From Mucisphaera calidilacus (GTDB taxonomy: Bacteria > Planctomycetota > Phycisphaerae > Phycisphaerales > Phycisphaeraceae), in assembly GCF_007748075.1 (NCBI RefSeq), contig NZ_CP036280.1, forward strand, positions 2,250,001-2,282,000: a DNA stretch of 32,000 nucleotides, read 5' to 3'. Both the position numbers and the translations under genes were made by a program. The notes below the pieces were generated by a model. That model was not told the origin of the DNA and did no database searches. It saw only the letters and a program-made list of their open reading frames with translations. Position 1 is the first letter of the stretch. Each line of letters opens with the position of its first letter. Of this stretch, positions 18,021 to 31,556 are shown piece by piece.

Positions 18021-18977
18021 TCACGCCGGCCATGCGTGGATCACGGCGAGGCTCGCCGCGAGCGAGAAGGGGCACGCGAGCGTGGTGGTGGCGATGATCG
18101 AGGCGGCCAGCCCCTCGTCGCCACGGAGTTGTGTCACGAGGACGTAGCTGGCGACCGCGGTCGGTGTTGAGGCAAGGATCAGAAAGGCAAAGGCCTGCTG
18201 CTGATCCAGTTGCAAGGCCCACGCGAGCAGCACGGCGAGGGCCGGGCCGAGTCCGAGCTTGACGGTCGTGGTGATGGCCGCGAGGCCAAGATGGTTGTGA
18301 ACCTGATAGATGGTCAGCGCCCCGCCGAGACTGATGAGCGCTAGGGGCGCCGCGGGCTGACCGAGGAGGTTGAGCGTGGCAGCAATGGGCCTGATCTGAT
18401 CGACGCCGAGTATCCCCAGCAGCAGGCCGGCGACACAGGCGATGATGAAGGGGTTGGTGACCAGTGCGTGGAGCGTGTCCATGAGCGTCTTGCTCAGGTG
18501 CGTGTCGCTGTCACGCGTGTGATTGGGCAGTGTCAGCACCGGGACGGCGAGGAGGTTGTAGATCGCGATGATCGGCGCGAGCGTGAGTGCGGCGATGGCG
18601 AGGGTTCGGTCGTCGGCGCCGGCGAGTTCGATCACCGGCAGGCCCACGAAGGCCAGATTTCCGCGGAACGCACCCTGGATGACCACGCCGAACGCGGCAC
18701 GCTCACGGCTGAAGATCAGCCAGCAGAGCAGGCCGGCGCCCGCGGTGGTCAGCGTTAGCAGGGTCATCGCGAGGACCACCCAGCCCACGGTGCTATCGAG
18801 ACTCCCGGCTTCCGCGATCTTGATGATCAGGAGGGCCGGCAGGAAGATCCAGTAGACAAGCTTGTCGAGGATCGCCCGGTGTTCGGGCCGCACGAATCCC
18901 GAGCGGAAGAGCATCACGCCGAGCGCTACGAGCAGCACGATCGGCAGCAGCGTCTCGATGATGTGCAGGAAGACCAT
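18021..18977 (-). CDS. AEC (auxin efflux carrier / MleP-like) family membrane transporter
   Basis: Trimmed to ATG 18977 (MVFLHIIETLLPIVLLVALGVMLFRSGF...). About 10 hydrophobic helices in two halves, typical of the Mem_trans family. It lies 41 nt downstream of the DeoR gene on the same strand. Confidence 0.8.
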   Translation of the reverse strand: MVFLHIIETLLPIVLLVALGVMLFRSGFVRPEHRAILDKLVYWIFLPALLIIKIAEAGSLDSTVGWVVLAMTLLTLTTAGAGLLCWLIFSRERAAFGVVIQGAFRGNLAFVGLPVIELAGADDRTLAIAALTLAPIIAIYNLLAVPVLTLPNHTRDSDTHLSKTLMDTLHALVTNPFIIACVAGLLLGILGVDQIRPIAATLNLLGQPAAPLALISLGGALTIYQVHNHLGLAAITTTVKLGLGPALAVLLAWALQLDQQQAFAFLILASTPTAVASYVLVTQLRGDEGLAASIIATTTLACPFSLAASLAVIHAWPA

Positions 18978-19018
18978 GGGCAGATGGTAACGGGAAGCGC
19001 TCTGGCCGAGCCGGGTGT

Positions 19019-19786
19019 TCAGCGTGTCGCGACGGTCAGCCGGCTGCCGAGTGAGGCCGGCCACTGATCGCCAACGCCCGCGTCGGTGATGATCTCGTCG
19101 AAACGATCGAGCTCTGCGACACGAACGAGCGAACGACGACCGAACTTGCTGGCGTCCATGAGCAGGACCGACCGCTCGGCCTGGTCCATCATGGCCAGCT
19201 CGATCCGTGTCAGCTCGGTGTTGAGGTTGTAGCCGGCGTTCTCGTCGAGTGCGGCGAGTGAGAGGAAACAGATATCGGCGTAGAGGTCGCGCAGCGCCTG
19301 GCGTGCGAGCGGTCCGACCATGGCGGAGGTGCGTGGGTAGAGCTTGCCGCCGACCACGGTGATCTCGACCTGCTCGTCGTTGGCGAAGTGCTGTGCGATG
19401 GCGAGGGAGGTCGTCGCGATCTGGATCGGTCGCACGGTGATCTGCTGGGCGGCGTAGACGACGGTCGACCCGGCGTCCATGAGGATCGTCATGTTCGGTT
19501 CGATCAAGCGAGCGGCCGCGGCACCGATCGCGCGTTTGGCCTCGACGTTGTCTGCCATGCGTCCGGCGAAGGCGGTTGCCTGCCCGCTGTGCGTGGTGGG
19601 CGACGTGTCGAGGAGCACCGCCCCGCCGTGCGTGCGCTCGATGAGCCCGCGTTCTGCCAGCCGGTCGAGATCACGCCTGACCGTTGAGACACTCACGTCG
19701 AGTTCTGCGGAGAGCATCTCGAGACTGGCGCTGCCTCGCTGCTTGAGGATGTCCAGGAGGCGTTGCTGGCGTTCGAGGATCAGCAT
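19019..19786 (-). CDS. DeoR-family transcriptional regulator (HTH + sugar-phosphate-binding DeoR C-terminal domain)
   Basis: The track ORF extends to 20074 through an S/R/A-rich frame that overlaps the upstream dehydrogenase. The real start is ATG 19786: MLILERQQRLLDILKQRGSASLEMLSAELDVSVSTVRRDLDRLAERGLIERTHGGAV. C-terminal domain: ILMDAGSTV...FLSLAALDE...VLLMDASKFGRRSL. Confidence 0.88.
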   Translation of the reverse strand: MLILERQQRLLDILKQRGSASLEMLSAELDVSVSTVRRDLDRLAERGLIERTHGGAVLLDTSPTTHSGQATAFAGRMADNVEAKRAIGAAAARLIEPNMTILMDAGSTVVYAAQQITVRPIQIATTSLAIAQHFANDEQVEITVVGGKLYPRTSAMVGPLARQALRDLYADICFLSLAALDENAGYNLNTELTRIELAMMDQAERSVLLMDASKFGRRSLVRVAELDRFDEIITDAGVGDQWPASLGSRLTVATR

Positions 19787-19820: not shown

Positions 19821-20744
19821 TCACTTGAGCTGGGCGAAGGTCTGGTCGAGTGACTGGCTCGACCGCTGCAGGCCGGCGAGTTCCTTGGGCCAGAGCTTGA
19901 TGTCATGGTAGCCCACAACACCCTCGCGGCCCACGACTGTCGGGATCGACAGGCAGACACGCTGCAAGCCGTACTGGCCTGACATGCGTGTCGAGACGGG
20001 GAGGATCTGGCGGCTGTCGAGCGCGATGCTGTGGATGACCTCGAGAATCGAAAGCCCCACGGCGTAGCCGGCACCGCCCTTGCGGCGGATCACCTCGGCG
20101 CCGGAACCCTTGGTGCGCTCGAAGATGGTCTGCTGCTCGTTGGGGGTGAGCAGTTCGGTGAGCGCGATGCCGCCTACGGTTGCCGACGACCAGATCGGCG
20201 ACATCGAGTCGCCGTGCTCGCCGAGGATCAGGGCCTTGACCTGCGTGGGCGGGAGGTTCTTCGCCTCGGCGATCATCGATCGGAAACGGGCGGTGTCGAG
20301 CACCGTGCCCAGGCCCATCACCCGCTGCGGGTTCCAGTCTAGGTACTCGACCGCGAGGCGTGTGAGCACGTCGACGGGGTTGGAGACGACAAAGAGGATC
20401 GCGTCGCGTGACAGCCCGCCATCCCTCAGGCCATCGAGGATGCCGCGGAAGATCGAGACGTTGCGGTTGATCAGGTCGAGTCGTGACTCGTCCGGTTTGC
20501 GGCGTGAGCCGGCCGTGATGCAGACGACGTCGGCGTCGGCCACCTCGCTGAGATTCGCGGCGTGGATGCGCTGATCGGCGATGATCGAGCTGCCGTGGAG
20601 CAGGTCGAGCGCCTCGCCCTGGGCGGCGTCGTGGTTGACGTCCACCAGCGCGATGTCACGGACAATGCCGCCACACTGCAGGGCGTAAGCTGCGTTCGAT
20701 CCGACGCGTCCCGCGCCGCCGACGATGGCTACCTTGATCGACAT
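19821..20744 (-). CDS. LDH/MDH-family NAD-dependent 2-hydroxyacid dehydrogenase (Arg at the substrate-specificity position)
   Basis: KVAIVGGAGRVGSNAAYAL, IALVDV, specificity loop ITAGSRRKPDESRLDL, NPVDV, LDTARFR, catalytic GEHGDS. Substrate is not assignable from sequence alone (see findings). Confidence 0.85.
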   Translation of the reverse strand: MSIKVAIVGGAGRVGSNAAYALQCGGIVRDIALVDVNHDAAQGEALDLLHGSSIIADQRIHAANLSEVADADVVCITAGSRRKPDESRLDLINRNVSIFRGILDGLRDGGLSRDAILFVVSNPVDVLTRLAVEYLDWNPQRVMGLGTVLDTARFRSMIAEAKNLPPTQVKALILGEHGDSMSPIWSSATVGGIALTELLTPNEQQTIFERTKGSGAEVIRRKGGAGYAVGLSILEVIHSIALDSRQILPVSTRMSGQYGLQRVCLSIPTVVGREGVVGYHDIKLWPKELAGLQRSSQSLDQTFAQLK

Positions 20745-20777: not shown

Positions 20778-21641
20778 TTACTTGGCACCGGCCATGATCT
20801 GGTCGGTAATGGATCGGACGAGTTGCTCGAAGTCGGCGTCGGACCCGCCCGCGGCGGCGGAGGGCGTCGCGACCTGACCGTCGCAGCCGCACGATGCGCT
20901 CATCGGCTGAACGCCGAAGGTCGTGAGGAAGGCCTCGTTGTCGGGGCCGACGCATCCGGTCGGTGCGCACTTGAGGCGGTCGTCGGGGAAGCCGAAGCGT
21001 TGCTTGACCTTCAGCAGGTCGGTCATCTGGTTGTCGTCAAGCACGTTCACCTGACCGAGTTGCTTGGTGAGGATCAACTGCTTGCAGTAGTTGTCGAGGA
21101 TCTCCAGGCGGTAGTAGGCCTCGATGAGCGTGCTGCCGAGCGAGACCGAGCCGTGGTTGGCCATCAGGATGGTGTTGGTCTGCTCGTTGATGCGATCGAT
21201 GAAGCTCGCGGGCAGGTCGGGGCCGCCTGGGGTCGCGTACTTGGCGAAGATCGTGCGTCCCAGGAAGACCTCGGCCTCGGGGTGGATGCCCTCGGGCAGC
21301 GGGATGTTGGCGAGGCAGAAGGCGACGGCGTGCGGCGGGTGCGAGTGAATGACCGCCTTGACCGTCGGCTGTTTCTTGTAGATCGCCAGGTGGACGAGCA
21401 CCTCGCTGGTCCGCTTGCGGCCCTTGCCGTTCGACTCGACCTGGTTGCCGTCCATGTCGACGATGCAGAGGTCCTCGGGGTCGAGGAAGCCCTTGCTGAT
21501 GCCGGTTGGCGTGCAGACGACGCGGTCTTCGCTGATGCGCACCGAGTGGTTGCCCTCATTGCCAGCGCAGTAGCCGCGCTGCCAGATGCGGTTGCCGATG
21601 TCGCACATTTCTTTTTTGATCTGCCAGATTGGAGCGTTCAC
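20778..21641 (-). CDS. Class II aldolase (fuculose/rhamnulose-1-phosphate aldolase-like) with a ~65-aa C-terminal extension ending in an encapsulation-peptide-like helix
   Basis: GTG start at 21641 with GAGGA 7 nt upstream. GNEGNHSVR, Zn ligands VIHSHPPHAVAF and LMANHGSVSLG. The extension past the ~220-aa core reads CAPTGCVGPDNEAFLTTFGVQPMSASCGCDGQVATPSAAAGGSDADFEQLVRSITDQIMAGAK. Confidence 0.88.
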   Translation of the reverse strand: MNAPIWQIKKEMCDIGNRIWQRGYCAGNEGNHSVRISEDRVVCTPTGISKGFLDPEDLCIVDMDGNQVESNGKGRKRTSEVLVHLAIYKKQPTVKAVIHSHPPHAVAFCLANIPLPEGIHPEAEVFLGRTIFAKYATPGGPDLPASFIDRINEQTNTILMANHGSVSLGSTLIEAYYRLEILDNYCKQLILTKQLGQVNVLDDNQMTDLLKVKQRFGFPDDRLKCAPTGCVGPDNEAFLTTFGVQPMSASCGCDGQVATPSAAAGGSDADFEQLVRSITDQIMAGAK

Positions 21642-21679: not shown

Positions 21680-21982
21680 TCAGGTGTTCCATTCGATCTG
21701 GTCGAGGATCGCGGCGTTATATGCATCGACCGGTGCCTTGCCCGGATGAAAAGGCGCCGCCGCCTCGCGTCCCTCGCTGATGGCGATCACCGCGCCGATC
21801 CCGGCACCGAGCGAATCAAAGACCACCAGCGACTCGGGCATCGGCGACTGCCGCGGCTTACTCGACTTGATGCCGGCCAGCGCGGGCCCGTCGAGTACTT
21901 CGCCGATCAGGAGCTGGCCCGGCGGGAAGCCGTTGAGCGACTTGCCGAGGGTCACGTTGCCGATGACGCGTGCGATCCTCAT
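21680..21982 (-). CDS. BMC-P pentameric vertex protein (EutN/CcmL family), paralogue 3
   Basis: Only the last 100 codons of track ORF 21680..22894 are credible: MRIARVIGNVTLGKSLNGFPPGQLLIGEVL...ESLVVFDSLGAGIGAVIAISEGREAA...DAYNAAILDQIEW. The ATG at 21982 overlaps the stop of the upstream gene (ATGA). Confidence 0.85.
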   Translation of the reverse strand: MRIARVIGNVTLGKSLNGFPPGQLLIGEVLDGPALAGIKSSKPRQSPMPESLVVFDSLGAGIGAVIAISEGREAAAPFHPGKAPVDAYNAAILDQIEWNT

Positions 21983-22824
21983 GAGCGTGCCCCCTCTACC
22001 GCGTGCAGTGCGTGAGCGATCGTCGCGGGCACCGCGGGTGACGAGGCCAGCATGCTGTCCACCCGGCCGGCCATCTGGTCGTAATCGTTGTACGGGAACT
22101 CGAGAATGAGCACGTTCGCGCCGAGGTCGCGCAGGCCCTGCCGCACAGAACCGTCGCAGTGCCCGAGGATCGCGCGGATGCCACGCAGACGGTTGGCGAA
22201 GCACATCGGCTTGGCGGCCTGGGCGACAAAAAGGATGCCGCCCGCCGCACGCCCGGTGCTGATCGCGCCGGCCATGTCGGTCAAGACCGAAGGCAACGCG
22301 GCTGCCTCGCGCGGAGCGATCATCGGCAGCAAGCGATGCCGACGCTCCTCGACGATCTGCTTCACCGCCGGACACTGCCCGCACGTCCACCACAGCCACG
22401 GCTGGCCGTAGTTGATGGCCTGGAGCGTGCCCTGCGTGGCCGCGACCTGCCGCCTGGAGAACCGGTGCGGCGCCTGCCGGACCTTGTCCTGCGCCAGCGG
22501 TGTCAGACGCGCGGTCGCAGCCAGGATTACGCTGCCGTCGGGAGAGGAGGCGACGGCATCGTCGATCATGTTCGCCGTGATCAGACCGTCGATCACGGGA
22601 GGCTCGGTCAAAGCCTGAACCATGGGCGGATCGCCCTGCTGCGACACCGTGACCGGCGGGCTGACCGGAGCCGGATCGGGCAGCACGCCCGCGCCCGGGC
22701 ACTGACCGAGTGGCGGCTGGATCGGCGCCGGTGTCGAACCACCCGACGCCTGCATCGCGCGCAGCACCTGCTCCGCGATCCGTGCGATGAGTTGGGGGTC
22801 CGGTGTGGTCATGGCGTCTGTCAC
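21979..22824 (-). CDS. BMC-associated protein: N-terminal encapsulation-peptide-like helix, Pro-rich linker, C-terminal RpiB/LacAB-like fold with degenerate catalytic residues
   Basis: The GTG at 22824 overlaps the stop of the upstream BMC-P (GTGA); ATG 22812 is an alternative start. N-terminus DPQLIARIAEQVLRAMQ, then a P-rich tract. The C-terminal GGILFVAQAAKPMCFANRLRGIRAILGHCDGSVRQGLRDLGANVLILEF aligns with the RpiB block [27 protein letters not shown]...HNDTNVLAFG as I remember it. That this is a real CDS is solid; the fold call is moderate. Confidence 0.6.
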   Translation of the reverse strand: MTDAMTTPDPQLIARIAEQVLRAMQASGGSTPAPIQPPLGQCPGAGVLPDPAPVSPPVTVSQQGDPPMVQALTEPPVIDGLITANMIDDAVASSPDGSVILAATARLTPLAQDKVRQAPHRFSRRQVAATQGTLQAINYGQPWLWWTCGQCPAVKQIVEERRHRLLPMIAPREAAALPSVLTDMAGAISTGRAAGGILFVAQAAKPMCFANRLRGIRAILGHCDGSVRQGLRDLGANVLILEFPYNDYDQMAGRVDSMLASSPAVPATIAHALHAVEGARS

Positions 22825-23102
22825 TTGCGCGGCACCTGGATGCCGTTGGGGTCAACAATCGAGAGTGTCCACCATCGTGCGGGGCTGGAATCATCGTGCA
22901 GCAGGTCGCGGATTCCCAGGCCGTCGGAGGTGATCACCACCGTGTCGTCGCGGCCCGCACCGAGGTTGTCGAGGACGAGCACCGGATCACCAACCGGCTG
23001 CATCGCGTTGCCGAGCATCTCGACAAGCAGCATTTTCGCGCCGTCCAGCGACGGGTGCTTGATAGTGCTCGTGGCTCGGCCTCGTACGACAGCGAGTTGC
23101 AT
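22821..23102 (-). CDS. BMC-P pentameric vertex protein (EutN/CcmL family), paralogue 2
   Basis: MQLAVVRGRATSTIKHPSLDGAKMLLVEMLG...DPVLVLDNLGAGRDDTVVITSDG...WWTLSIVDP is the canonical EutN/CcmL pattern. ATG with GGAGA upstream. Confidence 0.85.
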   Translation of the reverse strand: MQLAVVRGRATSTIKHPSLDGAKMLLVEMLGNAMQPVGDPVLVLDNLGAGRDDTVVITSDGLGIRDLLHDDSSPARWWTLSIVDPNGIQVPRK

Positions 23103-23123: not shown

Positions 23124-24590
23124 TCAGATCATCCGCAGGGAACCGCTGACGCTCATGCGTCGGAAGCGGGTGAACGTCGCGGGGCTGGTGATGCCCTCGC
23201 CGCTGGGTGTGGCGATCGAATAGCTGGCGTAGCCCTCGCCGCCCGCGCCAAGGCCGGCCGTGCAGGGTCCGTTCACAACGAAGAGCGTCGTGTTCATCAC
23301 ACGACCCATCCGCGAGATGTTCGCGAGGTTGTTCGAGTGGATGATCGCCGTGTGCCCGAAGCCGTGCTCGTTCTCGACCGCCAGCTGCAACGCGTGGTCG
23401 AAGTGGCTGCAACGCACAAACGGCACGAAGGGCATCATCTGCTCGGTCGGGACAAAGGGGTGATCCGCGGCGGTCTCGCCGAAGAGCAGGTCCGTGCCCG
23501 CGGGCACCGTGATCCCCGCGGCCTCGGCGAGCCGTGACGCATCGGCACCCACGAACTCCTTGCGGGGGACCCAGTGGTCGTCGTGGAAGGTCATCGCCGT
23601 CTCGGTGAGCTTGTTGATCTGCTGCGTGGTCAGCTGCACCGCGCCGGCGTTCACCATCGCCTGCATCATCGCCTCGAACACCTCGCGGACGACAAAGACT
23701 TCCTTCTCGCCGATGCAGAGGAGGTTGTTGTCGAACGCGGCGCCGGCGATGATCGACTTCGCGGCGTTGTCCAGGTCGGCCGAGGCATCGATCACCACGG
23801 GCGGGTTGCCCGGGCCCGCGACGATCGCTCGCTTGGGCTGCTTGGCGGCTGCCTTGGCGACCGCCGGCCCGCCGGTCGCCACCAGCAGCGGGATGCGCGG
23901 GTGGCTGAAGATCTTCTCGGCACTCCGCAGCGTCGGCGGGTCCATGATGCAGAGCAGCGGGTCGATGTTGAACTGCTGCTTGATGGCACGGTTGTAGGTG
24001 CGTGCGGCGAGGATCGCCGACTTCGCGCCCGACGGGTGTGCGTTGATCACCATCGAGTTGCCCGCCGCGATCATGTTGATGGCGTTCGCGGTCATGGTCG
24101 GGATCGAGTGGGTCACCGGCGTGATGACACCGATCACGCCCCACGGCGCGCCCTCGTCGAGGGAGACGCCGTCGTCGCCGCTGTGCGCCGGCGTGGTCAG
24201 GAACTCCACGCCCGGCACGTTCTCGAGCAACTCGAGCTTGGCGATCTTGTGATCCAGCCGCCCGACCTGCGTCTCGTTCAGCTCGAACTCGCCCCAGGCC
24301 TTGGCGTTCTCGCCGGCGATCTTCTTGATGAGCTTGACGATGGCGTCGCGTGTCTTGACGCCTGCCGCGGCCAGCTGCTGCTGGGCCTTCTCGGCCGAGG
24401 CGACTGCCGTATCCACGTCCGCGAACGTGCCCTCAGCCGGGTTGGCCTGCGACGCCGGGGCCGGTGCCGAACCCTGGTTGGCAGATGGCCGGCTGTTCGT
24501 AGCGGGCGCGGCCTGGCTGTTGGCGGCGCTCTGCATCTGCCGGAGCACCTCGGTCACCACGCTCTGAATGAGTTCGGATTGCTGCATCAT
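23124..24590 (-). CDS. CoA-acylating aldehyde dehydrogenase (PduP/EutE-like) with N-terminal encapsulation peptide
   Basis: N-terminus MMQQSELIQSVVTEVLRQMQ plus a ~30-aa Q/A/P/S/N linker, then the ALDH fold: GVIGVITPVTHSIPT, GPGNPPVVID, catalytic Cys context NNLLCIGEKEVFV, ENEHGFGHTAIIHS. Confidence 0.92.
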   Translation of the reverse strand: MMQQSELIQSVVTEVLRQMQSAANSQAAPATNSRPSANQGSAPAPASQANPAEGTFADVDTAVASAEKAQQQLAAAGVKTRDAIVKLIKKIAGENAKAWGEFELNETQVGRLDHKIAKLELLENVPGVEFLTTPAHSGDDGVSLDEGAPWGVIGVITPVTHSIPTMTANAINMIAAGNSMVINAHPSGAKSAILAARTYNRAIKQQFNIDPLLCIMDPPTLRSAEKIFSHPRIPLLVATGGPAVAKAAAKQPKRAIVAGPGNPPVVIDASADLDNAAKSIIAGAAFDNNLLCIGEKEVFVVREVFEAMMQAMVNAGAVQLTTQQINKLTETAMTFHDDHWVPRKEFVGADASRLAEAAGITVPAGTDLLFGETAADHPFVPTEQMMPFVPFVRCSHFDHALQLAVENEHGFGHTAIIHSNNLANISRMGRVMNTTLFVVNGPCTAGLGAGGEGYASYSIATPSGEGITSPATFTRFRRMSVSGSLRMI

Positions 24591-25037: not shown

Positions 25038-25301
25038 TCAGATCTTGAGGACGTCGTCGTGCGGACGCGGGATCACGTTCACCGAGAGCACTTCGCCCAC
25101 GCGACGCGCTGCCTCGGCCCCCGCCTCGACCGCTGCCTTGACCGCGGCGACATCGCCCTCAACGGTCACGGCGACCATGCCGCTGCCGGGCTTGTCCTTG
25201 CGCAGGAACTTGACGTTCGCGGCCTTGAGCGCCGCATCAAGAGCTTCGATGGCGGGAACGAGTCCCTTGGTCTCAATGGTTCCGATCGATTGCTGGGCCA
25301 T
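25038..25301 (-). CDS. BMC-H hexameric shell protein (PduA/EutM-like), paralogue 1
   Basis: [30 protein letters not shown]...[48 protein letters not shown] is the canonical single BMC domain. Confidence 0.93.
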
Positions 25302-25355: not shown

Positions 25356-26552
25356 TCACGTCGCAGACGCCGAACCCGCCAGGACCTCGAGGGTCTGACG
25401 GGCAACGACCTGCTCTTCGTCGGTGGGGATCACCCAGACCTCCACGTCACTGTTTTTCCTGCTCACCAGCGTCTCGGCGTTGCCGTCTGCGCCGGCGCTG
25501 GTCGTCTCATCAAGTCGGATGCCGAGGAAGGCAAGATCACGACAGACCGCCTCGCGGATCCGGATATTGTGCTGGCCGATCCCGCCCGTGAAGACCAGCG
25601 CGTCGACGCCGCCGAGGGCGACCGCGTACGCGCCGATGTAATGCCTGCAGGACTCGACAAACGCGTCTACCGCCAGTTGGGCACGCTCGTTGCCCTCCGA
25701 CGCGGCCTTCTGCACGTCACGCATGTCCGCGCTCACGCCACTGATCCCCAGCAGGCCGCCCTGCTTGCCCAGTTGGCTGAGGACGTCGTCCACCGACAGC
25801 CCCATCCCACGCAGCTTCAGCAACGCGTACATGTCGAAGTCGCCGACACGGGCCGCGTGCAGGATGCCGGTCTGAGGGGTTGTGCCGAACGAGTTGGCGA
25901 CGCTCTGCCCCGCCTTGATCGCGCAGGCCGAGCACGACCCGCCGAGGTGGAGGTTGATGACGCGTTTCGCCTCGGGTCGAATCTGCTGCATGCGACGCGC
26001 GATGTAAGCGTTGGAGGCTCCGTGGAAGCCGTAGCGACGCACGCCCTGCTCGGTCCAGTCGTACGGGATGCCGTACACCTGCCGGGCCATCGGGATGCTC
26101 TGGTGGAACGCCGTCTCGAACGCCGCCACCTGCCACGCATCGGGGAGCAGTTGAGCAAAGGCTTTCATGGCCGCGATGTAAGGCGGGTTGTGCGCCGGAG
26201 CGAGGTCGCTGAAGGAGGTCATCGTGTCGATGACGTCCTGATCGACGCGCACCGCACCCGAGATCGGTCCGCCATGCACGGCCTTGAAGCCGATGGCGTC
26301 GATCCGGCTGCTGTCGCCGAAACCCACCGCGGGCATTTCCGCCAACAACGCAGCGATCGCCGCCTGGTGGTCGGCGAAGTCCGCCTGACCCTCACGCGTC
26401 GCCTCACTCCCGCTCACCTTCCACGCGCTGCCGCCCTGCCCGATCCGGTCCGCGGCGCCCGATGCAAGCGCAGTCAGGCTCTCGTCCGCGCTCGTCTCGT
26501 AGAGCTTGAACTTGAGGCTGGTGGAGCCGAGATTGGCGACAAGGACGATCAT
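25356..26552 (-). CDS. ackA: Acetate kinase (acyl-phosphate:ADP phosphotransferase)
   Basis: MIVLVANLGSTSLKFKLY, AIGFKAVHGG, PAHNPP, RRYGFHGASN, INLHLGGSCS, VFTGGIGQ, VWVIPTDEE. No terminal extension that looks like an encapsulation peptide. Confidence 0.93.
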   Translation of the reverse strand: MIVLVANLGSTSLKFKLYETSADESLTALASGAADRIGQGGSAWKVSGSEATREGQADFADHQAAIAALLAEMPAVGFGDSSRIDAIGFKAVHGGPISGAVRVDQDVIDTMTSFSDLAPAHNPPYIAAMKAFAQLLPDAWQVAAFETAFHQSIPMARQVYGIPYDWTEQGVRRYGFHGASNAYIARRMQQIRPEAKRVINLHLGGSCSACAIKAGQSVANSFGTTPQTGILHAARVGDFDMYALLKLRGMGLSVDDVLSQLGKQGGLLGISGVSADMRDVQKAASEGNERAQLAVDAFVESCRHYIGAYAVALGGVDALVFTGGIGQHNIRIREAVCRDLAFLGIRLDETTSAGADGNAETLVSRKNSDVEVWVIPTDEEQVVARQTLEVLAGSASAT

Positions 26553-26585: not shown

Positions 26586-26846
26586 TCAGAGCTTGTCGAC
26601 GAGCTGATCGTGCGGACGCGGGATCACGTGCGCCGCGACCAACTCACCCACCGCGCCGGCCGCTTCGGCACCGGCGTCGACCGCGGCCTTGACCGAACCG
26701 ACGTCGCCGGTCACGAGCACGGTGATGTACGCGCCGCCGATGGCGACGGACTTGCTCAGCGTCACGTCCGCGGCTTTGAGCATCGCGTCGGTGCCCTGGA
26801 TCAGGCCGGTCTGGCCACGTGTTTCGAGGATGCCGATGGCAGCCAT
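26586..26846 (-). CDS. BMC-H hexameric shell protein, paralogue 2 (atypical pore loop)
   Basis: MAAIGILETRGQTGLIQGTDAMLKAADV...SVAIGGAYITVLVTGDVGSVKAAVDAGAEAAGAVGELVAAHVIPRPHDQL. Confidence 0.9.
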   Translation of the reverse strand: MAAIGILETRGQTGLIQGTDAMLKAADVTLSKSVAIGGAYITVLVTGDVGSVKAAVDAGAEAAGAVGELVAAHVIPRPHDQLVDKL

Positions 26847-26917: not shown

Positions 26918-27217
26918 TTACTTGCGGGTGGTCTTGCGGGCGGCGGCGGCGGGCACCATCGCGTCCAGCTCGTCGTGCGGACGGGGGATCACGTGCACGC
27001 CAACGATCTCGCCCACGCGTGAGCCCGCGGCGGCACCGGCGTCGATCGCGGCCTTCACGGCAGCAACATCACCGGTGATGAACGAGGTCACGAGACCCGA
27101 GCCGCACTTGTCCCAGCCGAGCATCTCGACGTTGGCGGCCTTGAGCATCGCGTCTGACGATTCGATCAGGGTGGCAAACCCCTTGGTTTCCAGCATGCCG
27201 AGTGCAGTCTGAGCCAT
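26918..27217 (-). CDS. BMC-H hexameric shell protein, paralogue 3 (Cys in pore loop, basic C-terminal tail)
   Basis: [84 protein letters not shown] plus the tail DAMVPAAAARKTTRK. Confidence 0.92.
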   Translation of the reverse strand: MAQTALGMLETKGFATLIESSDAMLKAANVEMLGWDKCGSGLVTSFITGDVAAVKAAIDAGAAAGSRVGEIVGVHVIPRPHDELDAMVPAAAARKTTRK

Positions 27218-27278: not shown

Positions 27279-27974
27279 TCAAGCCTTGGTCAGTTCCATG
27301 TGCGTCGCGGTGGCCAGATGACAGGCGTTGCCCTCGTCGGTGTCGATATGCACCTCGAGCTTCACCTTGGGGTTCACACGCACGACCACGTTGTCCAGCG
27401 TCAGGCCGCAGGGCCCGTCAATCCGTAGCTTCATCTTCTCGCCGTCCACCACGTTGTACCGCTCGGCGTCCTTCGGGCTCATGTGTACGTGCCGCTGGGC
27501 ACGCACCACACCCGCGGCGAGATTCACCGCGCCGTGGGGACCTACCAGCACACCCCCTGGCGTGCCCTCGTGGTTCCCGCTGATCCGCAGCGGCAACTCG
27601 ATCCCGAGGTAGATCCCGTCGGTGTAGGAGAGTTCGACCTGGGTGTAGTCACGCGTCGGGCCGAGGATCCGCACGTTCGGGATCATCCGGTTCCGTGGGC
27701 CGATCAGGTTCACGGTCTGCTCCGAAGCAAACTCGCCGTCCTGATAGAGATTCTTCAGCACCGTCAGTTTCGAACCCGGACCAAACAGCGTCTCGAGGTC
27801 CTGCTGCGTGACGTGCACGTGCCGCGCCGAGACATTCACCACCAGCGGGTTTTCGCCCGCGGTTGCCTGCTGCGACGGGAGATTCCCCGACGACCAGCGA
27901 TCACGGAGCGCCTCGCGGACGAGTTGCTCCACCTGGGCACGGTCCATGTTGGCGAGTTGGGGCATGAGTTGCAC
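27279..27974 (-). CDS. pduL: PduL-type phosphotransacylase with N-terminal encapsulation peptide
   Basis: Two PduL half-domains: VVNVSARHVHVTQQDLETLFG...VRILGPTR and VVRAQRHVHMSPKDAERY...VRVNP...VHIDTDEGNA. N-terminus MDRAQVEQLVREALRDRW plus linker. The track start TTG 28013 is unlikely. GTG 27974 has GGAGA 5 nt upstream; ATG 27965 is the alternative. Confidence 0.9.
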   Translation of the reverse strand: MQLMPQLANMDRAQVEQLVREALRDRWSSGNLPSQQATAGENPLVVNVSARHVHVTQQDLETLFGPGSKLTVLKNLYQDGEFASEQTVNLIGPRNRMIPNVRILGPTRDYTQVELSYTDGIYLGIELPLRISGNHEGTPGGVLVGPHGAVNLAAGVVRAQRHVHMSPKDAERYNVVDGEKMKLRIDGPCGLTLDNVVVRVNPKVKLEVHIDTDEGNACHLATATHMELTKA

Positions 27975-28003
27975 GGTGATCTCCGAGAAGTGATATCGCT
28001 CAA

Positions 28004-28033
28004 AAGATACCAAATCTTCCCATCGGATGCCAA
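28004..28033 (-). promoter_or_regulatory. Candidate sigma70-like promoter of the BMC operon (TTGGCA-N18-TATCTT) in an AT-rich island
   Basis: On the minus strand, TTGGCA (28033..28028), an 18-nt spacer and TATCTT (28009..28004) would give a leader of about 20 nt that includes the GGAGA before GTG 27974. The surrounding ~70 nt are conspicuously AT-rich for this genome. Promoter rules for this lineage are uncertain. Confidence 0.25.
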
Positions 28034-28126: not shown

Positions 28127-30709
28127 TCAGGGCAAGATACGCACCGCAACCCCCGGCCGCCCCACCACACGCACTCGAACCCGCCGCTCCTGCTCCGGCC
28201 ACTGCCCCTCTTCCACCGCCATCCGCACCCGGACCTCGTCACCTTCCAGCCACGCCGACACCCGCGTCAGACGAAACGCACCGTCGCGGTACCCGAAGCC
28301 GTTGTAGGCATCTTCATAGAGAAAACCCTCCGCCATCCCCTGCTCGTTCAGGTGCACCGAAAGCGTCAGCGGGTCCAGCCGGTAATCAACCGTGTGCTGC
28401 ACGACGGGTCCCAGAGGGATCACGCTCCCGGGCCGCTGCCGCAGCTCCACCTGATAACCGTCCTCCTCGATATCTCCCTCCAGCAGCGACACCGGTCGCC
28501 AGTCGCCAGCCGGCACCGCGGGGGATTCCGCCCAGCGCGGGATCACCAGCAGGTCGCCGCCAACCATGAACGCCCGCTCCTCGCCCCGCAGTTTCAGATC
28601 TGTTGGGTCCGCCATGAAGACAGGCCGCATCACAGGCAGCCCGCGAACCGAGGCCTCCCGGAAGCAGGTGTAGAGATAAGGCAGCAGGCGGTACCGGCGT
28701 TCCAACGCCACGCGTGCGATGTTCTCCGTCTCGTCGTCGTACGTCCACGGCTCGCGATCGGGCTGTGTGCCCTTGCCGCCGAAATGACACCGGCTGAAGG
28801 GATAGAACGCCCCGACCGAGATCCAGTGTCGGAACAACTCCGCGTCCTTGGGCATATGTCCATCGAATCCGCCGATGTCCGGCCCGACAAACGGCTGGCC
28901 TGAAAGCCCAAGCGAGAGGCACATCGGGATCGACAGCCTCATATGGTTATCCGTCGGCGCGTTGTCACCTGTCCACGTCGCCGCGTACCGATGCCCGCCC
29001 AGGAAATTCGCACGCGTGAGCACAAAGGGCCGGCGATCCGGCTGGGCACGCAGCATGCCCTCTCGGGTCGCCCGTGCCATCATCATCCCGTAGATGTTGT
29101 GATGCTGCAGGTGCGACCCCGGCGGAATCCCCTCACCTCCGCGGTGCCGCGCGTCCACCGGCATCGTCGCGTCCGGCCCGCCAAACACCGCGGGCTCGTT
29201 CATGTCGTTCCAGACACCATCAACACCCTTGGCGATAAAAGGCGGGAACATCGAGGCCCACCAGTCACGCGCCTCGGGCATGGTGAAATCAGGGAACACG
29301 CTCTCACCCGCCCAGACCTTGCCGATGAATGCGGCCCCCGACGCGTCCTTCACCCAGATATCGCGTTTGGTTCCCGAGTCGTAGACGCCGTAACCCTTGT
29401 CCGGCTCCAGCTTGACGCCGGGGTTGAGCATCCACACCGCCTTGAAGTTCAGGTCGTGCAGATAGGCGTTCGTCGCCGCCGGGTCCGGGAAGCGGCGGGC
29501 GTTGTAGGTGAACACACGAAAACCGCGCATGTAATCAATATCAAACCAGAGCACGTCAACGGGCAGCCGTCGACGGCGAAACTCACGGGCGTACTTCCTG
29601 GCCATCGCGTCGTTGATGTAGGAGAAGCGACTCTGCTGAAAACCCAGCGCCCACAGGGGTGGCATCTCGATCGTCCCGGTCAACGCCGCAAGATGCTCCA
29701 GCACCTCTTCCACTGTCTCCCGTTCGAACATGTAGACGGGCACCGACGGCGCGTCCGTCTGCAGCCGCATCCCCGCTTTCAGATCAAGCGACGCCCGCCA
29801 CGTCGTGTCAAACAGCACGCCGAAAGCCGACCCGTCCGCACGCAGCCCCAGCACCCACGGGTGCGACTGATAGAGCCGCCGACCACGGTCCCTGCCGTAG
29901 CGGTAGTTGTCTGTGTTCCAAAACCGCACGAACGTCCCGTCACGAAGCAGCGGGCCTGTCACCATCCCCGTTCCGTAGAGATCCACCGCGTCCAGATCGA
30001 CATCAAGGTCAACACGCAGCCGTTCGCCGAGCCTTGTGAAGCGCGCCTCGGGCAAGCGCATCGGATCGCCGATGGCCTCGGCGGTATAGGGTGACAGCAC
30101 GAACGCGGGCGACATCGGGTGATCCGCAAGCTCGCGGTCGCTTGGCAACGCGACCACGCCGCGATCACCTACACGCGTAAGCGTTGTCTCGATCACCTGG
30201 GCGCTGTACGCCGAGATGTGCGGTGCTCCGCTGAACATCCCGCCCCCGAACCCCGTGTCGTTCACGCGAACTGCAAGACGATTCACACCCTCGCGCAGCA
30301 GGCCCGCCTTGAGCCGATAGCGACGCTCCTCATCCCATGCCGAGGCGCTGCCGTCGATCTTGCCCATCCCGCCGATGCGATCGCCGTTGAGGAAGGTCTC
30401 GTCGGCATCGTCGATACGCCCGAGATGCAGCCAGATCACCTCCTGCCCGACCAGCTTCGCCGACGCCTCAAACTCCAGGAAGTACCACCCGAAACCGTCC
30501 ATTTCCGGATACCCCGCCGCCTCCCACGCCATGCCCACCTCGATCGGCACACGCTCCGCGGGCGGCTGCGTGGACCACGACGGATCGTCACCCGCCATGA
30601 ACGTCCACCCGTCCGACAGGTCGTACCGCTCGGCCTGCCCCCACGCAGGCAACACGGCGCCCAGCAGCACCAGCACGCACCCAACCAGCCGCACGAAAAC
30701 CCCTGGCAT
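28127..30709 (-). CDS. Secreted glycoside hydrolase family 31 (alpha-glucosidase/alpha-xylosidase-like) with N-terminal galactose-binding-like domain
   Basis: Signal peptide MPGVFVRLVGCVLVLLGAVLPAWGQA. N-terminal module WYFLEFEA...WLHLGRIDDADETFLNGDRIG (GH2-N/esterase-like jelly roll). GH31 catalytic region VDVLWFDIDYM, nucleophile motif GVWNDMNEP, ATWTGDN. Confidence 0.9.
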   Translation of the reverse strand: MPGVFVRLVGCVLVLLGAVLPAWGQAERYDLSDGWTFMAGDDPSWSTQPPAERVPIEVGMAWEAAGYPEMDGFGWYFLEFEASAKLVGQEVIWLHLGRIDDADETFLNGDRIGGMGKIDGSASAWDEERRYRLKAGLLREGVNRLAVRVNDTGFGGGMFSGAPHISAYSAQVIETTLTRVGDRGVVALPSDRELADHPMSPAFVLSPYTAEAIGDPMRLPEARFTRLGERLRVDLDVDLDAVDLYGTGMVTGPLLRDGTFVRFWNTDNYRYGRDRGRRLYQSHPWVLGLRADGSAFGVLFDTTWRASLDLKAGMRLQTDAPSVPVYMFERETVEEVLEHLAALTGTIEMPPLWALGFQQSRFSYINDAMARKYAREFRRRRLPVDVLWFDIDYMRGFRVFTYNARRFPDPAATNAYLHDLNFKAVWMLNPGVKLEPDKGYGVYDSGTKRDIWVKDASGAAFIGKVWAGESVFPDFTMPEARDWWASMFPPFIAKGVDGVWNDMNEPAVFGGPDATMPVDARHRGGEGIPPGSHLQHHNIYGMMMARATREGMLRAQPDRRPFVLTRANFLGGHRYAATWTGDNAPTDNHMRLSIPMCLSLGLSGQPFVGPDIGGFDGHMPKDAELFRHWISVGAFYPFSRCHFGGKGTQPDREPWTYDDETENIARVALERRYRLLPYLYTCFREASVRGLPVMRPVFMADPTDLKLRGEERAFMVGGDLLVIPRWAESPAVPAGDWRPVSLLEGDIEEDGYQVELRQRPGSVIPLGPVVQHTVDYRLDPLTLSVHLNEQGMAEGFLYEDAYNGFGYRDGAFRLTRVSAWLEGDEVRVRMAVEEGQWPEQERRVRVRVVGRPGVAVRILP

Positions 30710-30791: not shown

Positions 30792-31556
30792 TCACGCCAC
30801 GAGGTTTGCCTTGATGTAGTCGAAGCTCCGCTTCGCCGCGACAAACGGGTCATCGTCGGCCCAGTCGCGGTCCTGCTCGACGACGAACCATTCGCAGCCC
30901 GACGCCTCGGCGACGCGGATGACCTCGGCGAAATCGATGTTGCCGTCGCCGACGGAGGCCATTTTCACGGTGTTGTTGTCCAGGACCGTGTAGTCCTTGA
31001 GGTGGATCACCGGCAGGCGTCCCTTGCACTTGCCGCACCAGCCCGCCGGGCTGCCCCCGCCGAACTGCACCCAGTAGGTGTCCAGCTCGAACCCGAGGTC
31101 CGGGTTGGCGTCAAAGAGCAGTTCCATCGCGTTGACCCCGCCGTAGTTCACGAATTCCAGCGCGTGGTTGTGGTAGCTGAGCCGCAGTCCGGCTTCTTTG
31201 AACGCGTCGGCCGACACCGCCAGCTTCGCTGCCAGTTCGCGGTATCCCGCCTCGGTGTGCTCGATCGACGGGAACGGATAGGCCGTGTCGATGCAGCCGA
31301 AGGTCTTGAGCTTGTCAAAGAGCGACGCGGGGTCCGAGAGGATCGTCTTGGAATCCTCGTGCGTTGCGCAGATGACCAGTCCGTTGTCGTCGCAGATCTT
31401 GCGGACGTCATCGGGTGCGATGGGCCCGATCGCGCTGATCTGGACCGCCTTGTAGCCGATCGCCGCTGTCTTCTTCATCGCCTCGGCAAAGTCCGCCTCG
31501 GTCTTGCAATGGTCGCGAATCGTGTAGCACTGCAGGGCAACCTGATCAATCTTCAT
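30792..31556 (-). CDS. Sugar phosphate isomerase/epimerase (xylose isomerase-like TIM barrel)
   Basis: 254 aa. MKIDQVALQCYTIRD..., IGYKAVQIS, LSYHNHALEF, ELDTYWV, VIHLKDY, EWFVVEQD: the metal-ligand pattern of the AP_endonuc_2/xylose-isomerase-like family. Confidence 0.8.
   Translation of the reverse strand: MKIDQVALQCYTIRDHCKTEADFAEAMKKTAAIGYKAVQISAIGPIAPDDVRKICDDNGLVICATHEDSKTILSDPASLFDKLKTFGCIDTAYPFPSIEHTEAGYRELAAKLAVSADAFKEAGLRLSYHNHALEFVNYGGVNAMELLFDANPDLGFELDTYWVQFGGGSPAGWCGKCKGRLPVIHLKDYTVLDNNTVKMASVGDGNIDFAEVIRVAEASGCEWFVVEQDRDWADDDPFVAAKRSFDYIKANLVA

Follow-up and report, generated by a model that had tools for sequence, protein, structure and literature searches.

A catalytically degenerate RpiB-fold protein with an encapsulation peptide as a candidate adaptor of the PVM microcompartment in Mucisphaera calidilacus

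RESULTS

A PVM-type locus with an unusual gene between two pentamer genes

The analysed window, a stretch of 32,000 nucleotides from Mucisphaera calidilacus Pan265, contains a PVM-type microcompartment operon in which one open reading frame, here called X, is flanked by two pentamer genes. X occupies 21979..22824(-) and proved to be a real reading frame, as an earlier note on this DNA had proposed, with 281 aa counted from a GTG at 22824 to the stop codon TGA at 21981-21979. Its neighbours are BMC-P2 at 22821..23102(-), in the PvmK position, and BMC-P3 at 21680..21982(-), in the PvmM position, which match EutN_CcmL in Pfam with E-values of 2.4e-18 and 4.9e-14. A CoA-acylating aldehyde dehydrogenase (AldDH) with an N-terminal encapsulation peptide (EP, 24528-24575) is encoded at 23124..24590(-), and the signature enzyme, a class II aldolase with a C-terminal amphipathic EP, at 20778..21641(-). 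Pfam confirmed the AldDH, the aldolase, one BMC-H and three BMC-P in the window. Two further BMC-H genes, a PduL-type PTAC, an acetate kinase, an LDH/MDH-type dehydrogenase and a DeoR regulator were read from ORF translations and assigned by the gene order shared with Pfam-annotated homologous loci. The locus therefore holds the set of genes by which a PVM-type locus is recognised, namely aldolase, AldDH, PTAC, acetate kinase, LDH/MDH, DeoR, BMC-H and a BMC-P triplet, and its microcompartment is of the fucose/rhamnose PVM type. By gene order alone, X would correspond to pvmL in the published arrangement pvmABDEGHIJKLMNO (PMC11958385), with PvmJ, PvmG, PvmB, PvmO, PvmK and PvmM assigned according to PMC6620236 and PMC8217296. 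Plasmids were also searched for a PVM locus that would supply a PvmL from outside the Phycisphaerae, and no match was obtained.

The NCBI annotation starts X at an ATG at 22812, which yields a protein of 277 aa. Because the N-termini of close homologs (M-[ST]-x-x-[DN]-P-[QE]-L) match this ATG, the 5' junction of X may be an 8-nt spacer and not an overlap. An AGGTG motif lies 8 nt upstream of the GTG at 22824, and none is found ahead of the ATG. With the GTG start, the P2/X junction reads GTGA (22824..22821), the GTG of X overlapping the stop of BMC-P2; the X/P3 junction reads ATGA (21982..21979), the start of BMC-P3 overlapping the stop of X. Of the 4-nt overlaps that had been claimed on both sides of X, the one towards P3 is present, and the one towards P2 depends on the choice between the GTG and the ATG at 22812. 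A Shine-Dalgarno-like motif for BMC-P3, GAGGGGG, is located within X, 7 nt upstream of the BMC-P3 start. Tight junctions occur in the operon only around X (-4 or +8 nt, and -4 nt), the others measuring 21-62 nt.

X carries an encapsulation peptide and two linkers

The EP core of X (aa 11-26, QLIARIAEQVLRAMQA; 22747..22794(-)) is an amphipathic helix. AF2 placed a helix at aa 10-27, with a pLDDT of ~94 over the 10-residue block 11-20, and no other stretch of X is as amphipathic as this one (muH 0.75). Scored against the core (positions 10-25) of the published model HMM02441_01.PVM, the EP of X reached 32.3 bits and that of the AldDH 32.8 bits, while the best of the other matches, over the six frames of the window, scored 16.9; the EP patterns of X and the AldDH are nearly alike. 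These results bear out the amphipathic targeting helix that had been proposed at the N-terminus of X. An EP was found in 121 of the 172 X-family members. X combines the features by which the EPs of BMC cargo are recognised, a terminal amphipathic helix of about 17 aa, a poorly conserved linker between it and the folded part, and a place in a BMC locus, and its encapsulation itself is predicted.

The Pro-rich linker reported earlier as about 50 aa long was recovered at aa 28-75 (22600..22743(-)). It is poorly conserved, has low pLDDT and is predicted to be disordered, with 13 Pro in 48 residues; within it lies a conserved motif, PPLGQCPG (aa 37-44; 22693-22716(-)). A second, variable linker (aa 126-142; 22399..22449(-)) connects the two folded domains described below.

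A small domain shared with EutT and related microcompartment proteins

Residues 76-125 of X (22450..22599(-)) form a small beta-alpha-beta-alpha-beta domain resembling EutT and TIGR02536. The domain is kept in 171 of the 172 family members, and T83 and the motif L107-P109-L110-A111-x-D113 are invariant in an alignment of 42 sequences. Alignment with the N-terminal module of EutT gave a hhalign E-value of 7.6e-6. A search with an HMM of the domain covered 758 six-frame ORFs, taken from the window and the E. coli eut region together, and matched only X and the N-terminus of EutT (E 4.2e-5). Similarity to EutQ is more distant (hhalign E 3.9e-4, probability 36%; 4.5 bits with the HMM); the domain is co-linear with EutQ residues 3-47, which contain the H1/H2 shell-binding part. 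In NCBIfam, 15 of 24 small-domain sequences matched TIGR02536, 9 matched EutT and 3 matched PduM, with best E-values of 8.9e-5 for TIGR02536 and a weak 0.016 for PduM. What recurs is a module of ~45 aa with the pattern T...[RI][LI]-T-P-x-A-x-[DE], found in BMC loci at the termini of proteins: at the N-terminus of EutT and at the C-termini of TIGR02536 and PduM.

Searches further afield returned little. Pfam has no match for the N-terminal regions of EutQ and EutT from E. coli, the small-domain profile retrieved nothing from PDB sequences beyond chance matches to myoglobin (E about 0.4), and Foldseek, queried with an AF2 model made for this domain alone, retrieved no solved counterpart (best E 0.18). 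A large-database search with the same profile returned almost exclusively short fragments of the X family, together with one 49-aa piece labelled EutT (E 0.033). Judged by these profile comparisons, the segment that the earlier note had left unplaced is a recurrent BMC-associated module, homologous to EutT and TIGR02536 and more remotely to EutQ and PduM. By the same measure, EutQ H1/H2 is the most weakly linked to X, although functional data exist for this member of the module alone. EutQ residues 9-41 are needed for shell association, and residues 1-99 send GFP to the organelle (PMC12487888); deletion of residues 1-100 abolishes binding to EutM (PMC4827028). PduM is described as a structural protein of microcompartments (Sinha et al. 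2012, as cited in PMC4827028).

The C-terminal domain adopts an RpiB/LacAB fold

The C-terminal domain of X (aa 143-281; 21982..22398(-)) had been likened to ribose-5-phosphate isomerase B. Because the match of the single sequence to PF02502 (E 0.0011, 19.4 bits) falls below the gathering cutoff of 24.7, the RpiB assignment needed family-level and structural evidence. PF02502 is matched by 36 of 42 X homologs (best E 8.3e-8), a profile of the family matches only RpiB/LacB chains in the PDB, and hhalign of X against E. coli RpiB gave an E-value of 2.6e-5. The AF2 model is confident, with pLDDT 95-98 in both the small and the RpiB-like domain, and the top 36 Foldseek matches in the PDB all belong to the RpiB/LacAB superfamily (best E 1.5e-6; target TM-score up to 0.80), with 123-156 aligned columns at 13-21% identity. 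Taken together, these data confirm the similarity. The Flavoprotein family PF02441 was considered as another identity and rejected: none of 42 members matched it at E<=0.1, hhalign against E. coli UbiX returned a probability of 0.16% (E 0.38), and no HFCD structure appeared in the Foldseek top 50.

Loss of the catalytic residues and the possibility of a new pocket

Compared with RpiB, X carries the substitutions C66->V200, T68->Q202, H99->D233 (or a gap) and N100->L234; in the enzyme, Cys66 is the catalytic base, and His99 and Asn100 serve ring opening and substrate binding. Across 172 representatives, position 200 is V in 156 and otherwise T, A, L or S, never C; position 233 is Q, E, D or L, with no His among the six commonest residues; and position 234 is L, V or I. 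The end of beta-1 reads T147-C148-G149-Q150, where the register against GCDH is uncertain by one residue, and in either register X has no Asp-His pair equivalent to Asp9/His10. The replacement of the catalytic residues asserted earlier is thus confirmed, family-wide at positions 200, 233 and 234, and the pseudo-enzyme or scaffold reading is likewise supported. Short forms of the family currently carry the name 'ribose 5-phosphate isomerase RpiB', which very probably misstates their activity.

Other residues are conserved specifically in this family. W146, G149, C151 and E242 lie in or beside the Rossmann-like core, and position 148 is D or E in 133 of 172 representatives. Judged from RpiB, the conserved residues would lie at the C-terminal ends of beta-1 and beta-5, the location of the RpiB active site. 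At position 257, Arg is commonest (97 of 172); this position presumably corresponds to the C-terminal helix that carries phosphate-binding arginines in RpiB. A conserved Cys cluster or metal site was sought in the family and discarded, C151 being present in 140 of 172 and C223 in 93 of 172, and the other Cys being variable.

This pattern would fit a repurposed ligand binder or enzyme, in which D/E148, C151, E242 and W146 form a new pocket for a pathway metabolite or cofactor. Fuculose- or rhamnulose-1-phosphate, DHAP and lactaldehyde would be candidate ligands, and the EP and small domain would merely bring X into the organelle. The homologous module of EutT is joined to a genuine enzyme; its presence alone therefore does not imply a scaffold role. 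Some RpiB enzymes use an alternative base, Glu75 in M. tuberculosis (PMC11585597). Inspection by eye of aligned homologs, however, revealed no acidic residue at the equivalent position, which is K205 in X and K, R, L, Q or T elsewhere. Moreover, all canonical catalytic residues have gone together, position 148 is Cys in X itself, the Arg at 257 is not conserved and is Ser in X, and the accepted PVM pathway needs no isomerase inside the shell. We therefore regard such a binder as unlikely, and the gated entry of a phosphosugar that had been suggested for X, which the Ser at 257 does not favour, as unsupported.

Gene order ties X to cargo enzymes more constantly than to pentamers

The order P2-X-P3 was found in 64 of 82 related loci (~80%), in line with the conserved P-X-P triad that the earlier note had anticipated. 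Such an arrangement could mean that X is a vertex-specific assembly factor, kept at a fixed ratio to PvmK and PvmM and binding or chaperoning them, for instance in vertex capping or as part of a complex at the vertices. The tight junctions confined to X and the GAGGGGG motif for P3 inside its end would agree with this role, as would the EP-less short forms of X, which overlap P3 in 15 of 22 loci. PVM shells also have no BMC-T, and EutQ's docking site of the EutM/EutL type therefore has no exact equivalent there. Against these points, 13-15 loci of the order AldDH-X-aldolase lack any pentamer gene within 4 kb and still retain full-length X with its EP; a fixed ratio to vertex proteins is thus not a property of the family. 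Nor is the overlap geometry conserved: X and P3 overlap (by -10, -4 or -1 nt) in 29 of 66 P-X-P loci (about 40%), the remaining 37 having spacers of 3-166 nt. Both results weaken the fixed stoichiometry claimed before. In addition, the EP indicates the lumen or cargo core and not the vertices specifically, and pentamers are very low in copy number. A dedicated vertex factor is accordingly quite improbable in our view.

With or without pentamer genes, X always lies between the AldDH and the aldolase in the related loci, and the next cargo gene downstream is always the aldolase; the constant neighbours of X are cargo enzymes. That X is an evolutionary relic with little function today, the remains of an isomerase that the operon still carries, could be read from the lost catalytic residues and the variable N-terminal architecture (EP in 121/172) but is very improbable, since the size and age of the family (158 clusters at 50% identity, E<=1e-30), the invariant motifs retained in both domains, the operon position fixed across Phycisphaerae orders and the confident model of both domains (pLDDT 95-98) indicate purifying selection on X.

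DISCUSSION

A putative adaptor between enzyme core and shell

With a probability of roughly 50%, we propose for X a structural and non-catalytic role in the PVM microcompartment, as a modular adaptor or scaffold that would help to join the enzyme core to the shell; the proposal draws on sequence comparison, predicted structure and analogy with other organelles. The EP of X would co-condense it with the AldDH, the PTAC and the aldolase, which bear EPs too. The small domain may dock on shell proteins as EutQ 9-41 does, EutQ being the one protein with this module for which shell binding has been shown. RpiB enzymes are dimers or tetramers, and the dead RpiB domain of X could provide oligomerisation; it may also bind the signature aldolase, by analogy with the SPU RPI-DERA complex.

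A broader version of this adaptor model is more tentative and less likely than not. X-type proteins might be the PVM counterpart of EutQ, a hub made of an EP, a EutT/EutQ-like docking domain and a dead RpiB oligomerisation domain that holds the aldolase. The T...RLTPxAxD module of ~45 aa might then be a second, unnamed and widespread targeting or docking signal in EUT, PDU and PVM systems, present in EutT, EutQ, some EutA variants, TIGR02536, PduM and PvmL.

PVM microcompartments occur abundantly in polysaccharide degraders of sea and soil and are under development as engineering chassis. To our knowledge, core-shell attachment in metabolosomes is understood in detail only for carboxysomes and, recently, for Eut through EutQ, and we know of no assembly factor for PVM microcompartments. 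If X is the PVM adaptor, it would offer a concrete protein for deletion, tagging and cargo loading, and the recruitment of dead RpiB domains to organise the enzyme core would be common to two kinds of organelle, SPU and PVM. It would also define a small docking module with possible use as a transferable targeting tag in different kinds of BMC.

Comparison with known systems

The gene slot and the EP are already known from the 2021 BMC catalogue (Sutter et al., PMC8217296, Suppl. Data 6, ep_hmms), in which PvmL takes the place of X between PvmK and PvmM and the PvmL EP model, HMM02441_01.PVM, is the one that fits X at 32.3 bits. The catalogue puts PvmL under PF02441 (Flavoprotein), whereas the family studied here is RpiB-like; the mismatch may be a labelling issue or a real swap of the globular domain. 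EutT, TIGR02536 (eut_hyp) and PduM have the small module in common with X, but the domains attached to it are unrelated.

EutQ (Held et al. 2016, PMC4827028; Yang et al. 2025, PMC12487888) resembles X in general layout, with an N-terminal module, a flexible region, a cargo or EP element and a globular domain, the module of EutQ docking on the shell and its globular part dimerising. However, EutQ binds the EPs of other proteins through H3/H4, whereas X bears its own, and where X has a dead RpiB fold, EutQ has a globular cupin domain active as an acetate kinase. EutQ docks at EutM/EutL, and PVM shells are without BMC-T.

The RPI protein of the SPU organelle likewise has an N-terminal amphipathic EP, a long unstructured linker and an RpiB-fold domain (PF02502) in which Cys66 is replaced, and its gene lies beside that of the signature aldolase, as in X. 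Its EP is followed by a linker of roughly 75 aa, its Cys66 is changed to Asp and its isomerase activity is negligible (PMC11585597). The protein is a tetramer, inactive on R5P, that forms a ~1:1 complex with the signature aldolase DERA, and it has been proposed to act in core packaging and not in catalysis (Dwyer et al. 2024, PMC11585597). SPU RPI is closely related to the enzyme, at ~50% identity to bona fide RpiB (PMC4207490), while X shares only 13-21% identity with RpiB structures; SPU RPI keeps His99 and has Asp at Cys66, whereas X is without Cys66, Thr68, His99 and Asn100. SPU RPI belongs to a DERA organelle and X to the class II aldolase organelle of the PVM type, where it carries an additional EutT/EutQ-like domain.

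Position of X in a PVM-type locus

The product of X (21979-22824(-), 281 aa from GTG) matches 'hypothetical protein Pan265_18700' of Mucisphaera calidilacus Pan265 (Phycisphaerae) with 100% identity. On the minus strand, the locus runs from a PduL-type PTAC gene (about 27279-28013) through two BMC-H genes (26918-27217 and 26586-26846), acetate kinase (25356-26552), a third BMC-H (25038-25301), BMC-P1 (24613-24975), AldDH (23124-24590), BMC-P2 (22821-23102), X, BMC-P3 (21680-21982), a class II aldolase (20778-21641) and an LDH/MDH-type dehydrogenase (19821-20744) to a DeoR regulator, the last gene. AldDH, the aldolase, one BMC-H and the three BMC-P were confirmed by Pfam, and the remaining genes were assigned from ORF translations and the gene order common to annotated homologous loci. 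This is the order of the PVM fucose/rhamnose microcompartment, pvmABDEGHIJKLMNO (PMC11958385; PMC6620236; PMC8217296), and by position in the operon X is pvmL. A GH31 glycoside hydrolase (28127-30709(-)) and a xylose-isomerase-like TIM-barrel protein (30792-31556(-)) are encoded upstream of the locus, and a Mem_trans/AEC-family permease (18021-19064(-)) just downstream of DeoR. Pfam scans of ten larger ORFs outside the BMC locus revealed no fucose or rhamnose isomerase or kinase.

X carries a PVM-type encapsulation peptide

An AF2 model built with a 42-sequence alignment (mean pLDDT 86) divides X into four parts: a helix (residues 10-27, counted from GTG), a low-confidence, Pro-rich linker (28-75; 13 Pro in 48 residues), a confident beta-alpha-beta-alpha-beta domain (about 76-125) and, beyond a short linker, an alpha/beta domain that is likewise modelled with confidence (143-281). 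The helix core, residues 11-26 (QLIARIAEQVLRAMQA), is the amphipathicity maximum of X, with a muH of 0.75; the encapsulation peptides (EPs) of AldDH and the aldolase reach 0.58 and 0.59. The 2021 BMC catalogue supplies EP HMMs, of which HMM02441_01.PVM belongs to the PvmL slot (PMC8217296). When its 16 core positions were scored across all six frames of the window, two strong matches emerged, the AldDH N-terminus (32.8 bits) and X (32.3 bits). Because both lie far above the third best (16.9 bits), the helix, read as an encapsulation signal in the earlier note, is a genuine PVM-type EP; an EP on this gene slot is already catalogued.

The linker of EP-bearing forms keeps a P-P-[LIV]-G-x-C-[TP]-G motif despite variable, low-pLDDT surroundings (here PPLGQCPG, aa 37-44, 22693-22716). 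C151 (22372-22374) is kept in 140 of 172 cluster representatives, and most homologs end in C-[G/V], from which X itself differs. These cysteines may have a redox or metal function, but they are not conserved together.

The RpiB-like domain has lost its catalytic residues

X alone matched PF02502 under the Pfam gathering threshold, but the wider family left little ambiguity about the RpiB fold proposed earlier: 36 of 42 homologs matched PF02502, RpiB/LacB chains were the only PDB matches of the family profile, and hhalign returned E 2.6e-5 for E. coli RpiB versus 0.38 for the PF02441 protein UbiX. In agreement, the top 36 Foldseek PDB matches were RpiB/LacAB-superfamily entries, covering essentially the whole RpiB chain.

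The catalytic residues are indeed substituted, as first suspected. In the HMMER alignment, Cys66 corresponds to V200, Thr68 to Q202, His99 to D233 (a gap in hhalign) and Asn100 to L234. The end of beta-1 reads T147-C148-G149-Q150, with a register uncertain by one residue, and the Asp-His pair is absent in both registers. Of the 172 representatives, 156 have Val at position 200 and none has Cys; positions 233 and 234 are Q/E/D/L and L/V/I; no homolog in the alignment shown has an acidic residue at the alternative Mycobacterium-type Glu base position. The canonical isomerase mechanism has therefore been lost family-wide. Short EP-less members (homolog records P0259, P0260, P0262 and P0327 among many others) are labelled 'ribose 5-phosphate isomerase RpiB' or 'RpiB/LacA/LacB family sugar-phosphate isomerase' by JGI and NCBI pipelines. 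As an enzyme assignment this label is probably wrong, since the whole family lacks the catalytic Cys and His. X could instead be a neo-functionalised binder or enzyme acting through the family-specific residues W146, D/E148, G149, C151 and E242, which we regard as unlikely.

The small domain resembles a BMC-associated module

The domain at aa 76-125, a segment previously left unplaced, varies least within the family: 171 of 172 representatives have it, versus 121 with the EP. Among the 42 aligned sequences T83 and L107-P109-L110-A111-x-D113 never change, and T108 hardly does. No Pfam family matched it, and neither sequence search nor Foldseek retrieved a solved counterpart. In hhalign it reached E 7.6e-6 (probability 84%) with the extreme N-terminus of E. 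coli EutT and E 3.9e-4 (probability 36%) with that of EutQ; each alignment is co-linear and begins at residue 3-4. As an unbiased control, the small-domain HMM was run against 758 six-frame ORF segments, taken from the window together with a 12-kb E. coli eut region; only X and the EutT N-terminus (E 4.2e-5) matched, with all others at E >= 0.5. Comparison of 24 domain sequences with 18,950 NCBIfam models yielded TIGR02536 'eut_hyp' for 15 (best 8.9e-5, at the TIGR02536 C-terminus), EutT for 9, HyaE for 4 and PduM for 3. The families hit most often, TIGR02536 and EutT, are BMC-associated.

The EutQ N-terminus itself matches TIGR02536 and a EutA variant, whose N-terminus in turn matches EutQ residues 6-92. 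One small module is apparently common to the first ~50 residues of EutT (L084:7503-8306, in the E. coli eut region) and EutQ (L084:8303-9004), the TIGR02536 C-terminus and the EutA variant N-terminus. It appears unnamed, because Pfam matched neither EutQ 1-84 nor EutT 1-94, and might serve more generally in docking or targeting to microcompartments. Functional data on it come only from EutQ, in which residues 9-41 are needed for shell (EutM/EutL) association, 62-99 bind cargo EPs and 1-99 are enough to target GFP (PMC12487888); removal of residues 1-100 abolished EutM binding (PMC4827028).

Cargo genes, not pentamer genes, are the invariant neighbours

The X family comprises 158 clusters at 50% identity (E<=1e-30), or 593 at E<=1e-10, and all organism labels returned were Phycisphaerae or unclassified planctomycete. 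The P2-X-P3 order was found in 64 of 82 loci with X identified, plus a few cut by contig ends. In 13-15 of the 82, X lies between AldDH and the aldolase, with a pentamer gene absent within 4 kb; one such locus, Pfam-confirmed, reads BMC-H, BMC-H, ack, BMC-H, AldDH, X, aldolase, DeoR. Since these loci keep AldDH and the aldolase around X, its invariant neighbours are the genes of the two main cargo enzymes rather than those of the pentamers. The pentamer-less PVM variant (three BMC-H, ack, AldDH, X, aldolase, DeoR) occurs in some Phycisphaerae and Planctomycetota MAGs (loci L040, L042, L045, L049 and L051-L061, e.g. L052:163-6560); in L052 both BMC-P and the LDH-type gene are absent within 4 kb. 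In such cases either the pentamers are lacking or their genes must lie elsewhere.

The coordinates of X and its 4-nt junctions with both pentamer genes are as the earlier note had them, the 5' overlap only if GTG 22824 is used. In the NCBI annotation X begins at ATG 22812 (277 aa), 8 nt past the BMC-P2 stop, so that the BMC-P2/X spacing is -4 nt (GTG) or +8 nt (ATG). The evidence is split: N-termini of close homologs, M-[ST]-x-x-[DN]-P-[QE]-L, favour the ATG, and a weak AGGTG 8 nt upstream favours the GTG. The ATGA overlap with P3 is robust, the P3 start being set by homology in all 66 loci with P3 after X. The overlap geometry is not conserved: X and P3 overlap (by -10, -4 or -1 nt) in 29 of the 66, with spacers of 3-166 nt in the rest. 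Overlap with P3 was seen for 10 of 39 EP-bearing X in P-X-P, for 15 of 22 short EP-less Tepidisphaerales forms, which begin at the small domain, and for none of 13 EP-bearing X between AldDH and aldolase. The prevalent P-X-P order and the tight junctions, which in the window operon are confined to X (others 21-62 nt), speak for a vertex-specific factor tied to pentamers, but the pentamer-less loci and unconserved overlaps make this quite unlikely. A functionless relic is very unlikely because conservation is strong.

Proposed role and comparison with known systems

We give a probability of roughly 0.5 to X being a non-catalytic adaptor or scaffold of the PVM microcompartment, the most economical reading with the EutQ hub model and the RPI of the SPU microcompartment as precedent. 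Beyond the domain identities, residue losses and synteny found for X, we infer its interactions as follows: the EP would bring X into the condensate formed by EP-bearing enzymes, docking on shell proteins would fall to the small domain, and the dead RpiB-like domain would oligomerise and may hold the aldolase.

The 2021 catalogue files the PvmL slot and its EP under PF02441 (Flavoprotein) (PMC8217296 Supplementary Data 6). The label does not fit the X family, which is RpiB-like here (21982-22398) and in 80 related loci, with no similarity to UbiX (hhalign E 0.38); either the label is loose or the globular domain in this slot has been exchanged in particular lineages.

The closest experimental precedent is SPU RPI, with an N-terminal EP, a ~75-aa linker and an RpiB domain in which Cys66 is replaced; it is a tetramer of negligible isomerase activity, forms an about 1:1 complex with the signature aldolase from the adjacent gene, and was proposed to have turned into a core-packaging protein (PMC11585597). 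X shares this layout of EP, linker and RpiB domain, but it has decayed further, has gained a EutT/EutQ-like module and belongs to a different organelle type. X is an EP-bearing pseudo-RpiB of the SPU RPI kind, found in another organelle type and joined to a docking-type module whose function had been studied only in EutQ.
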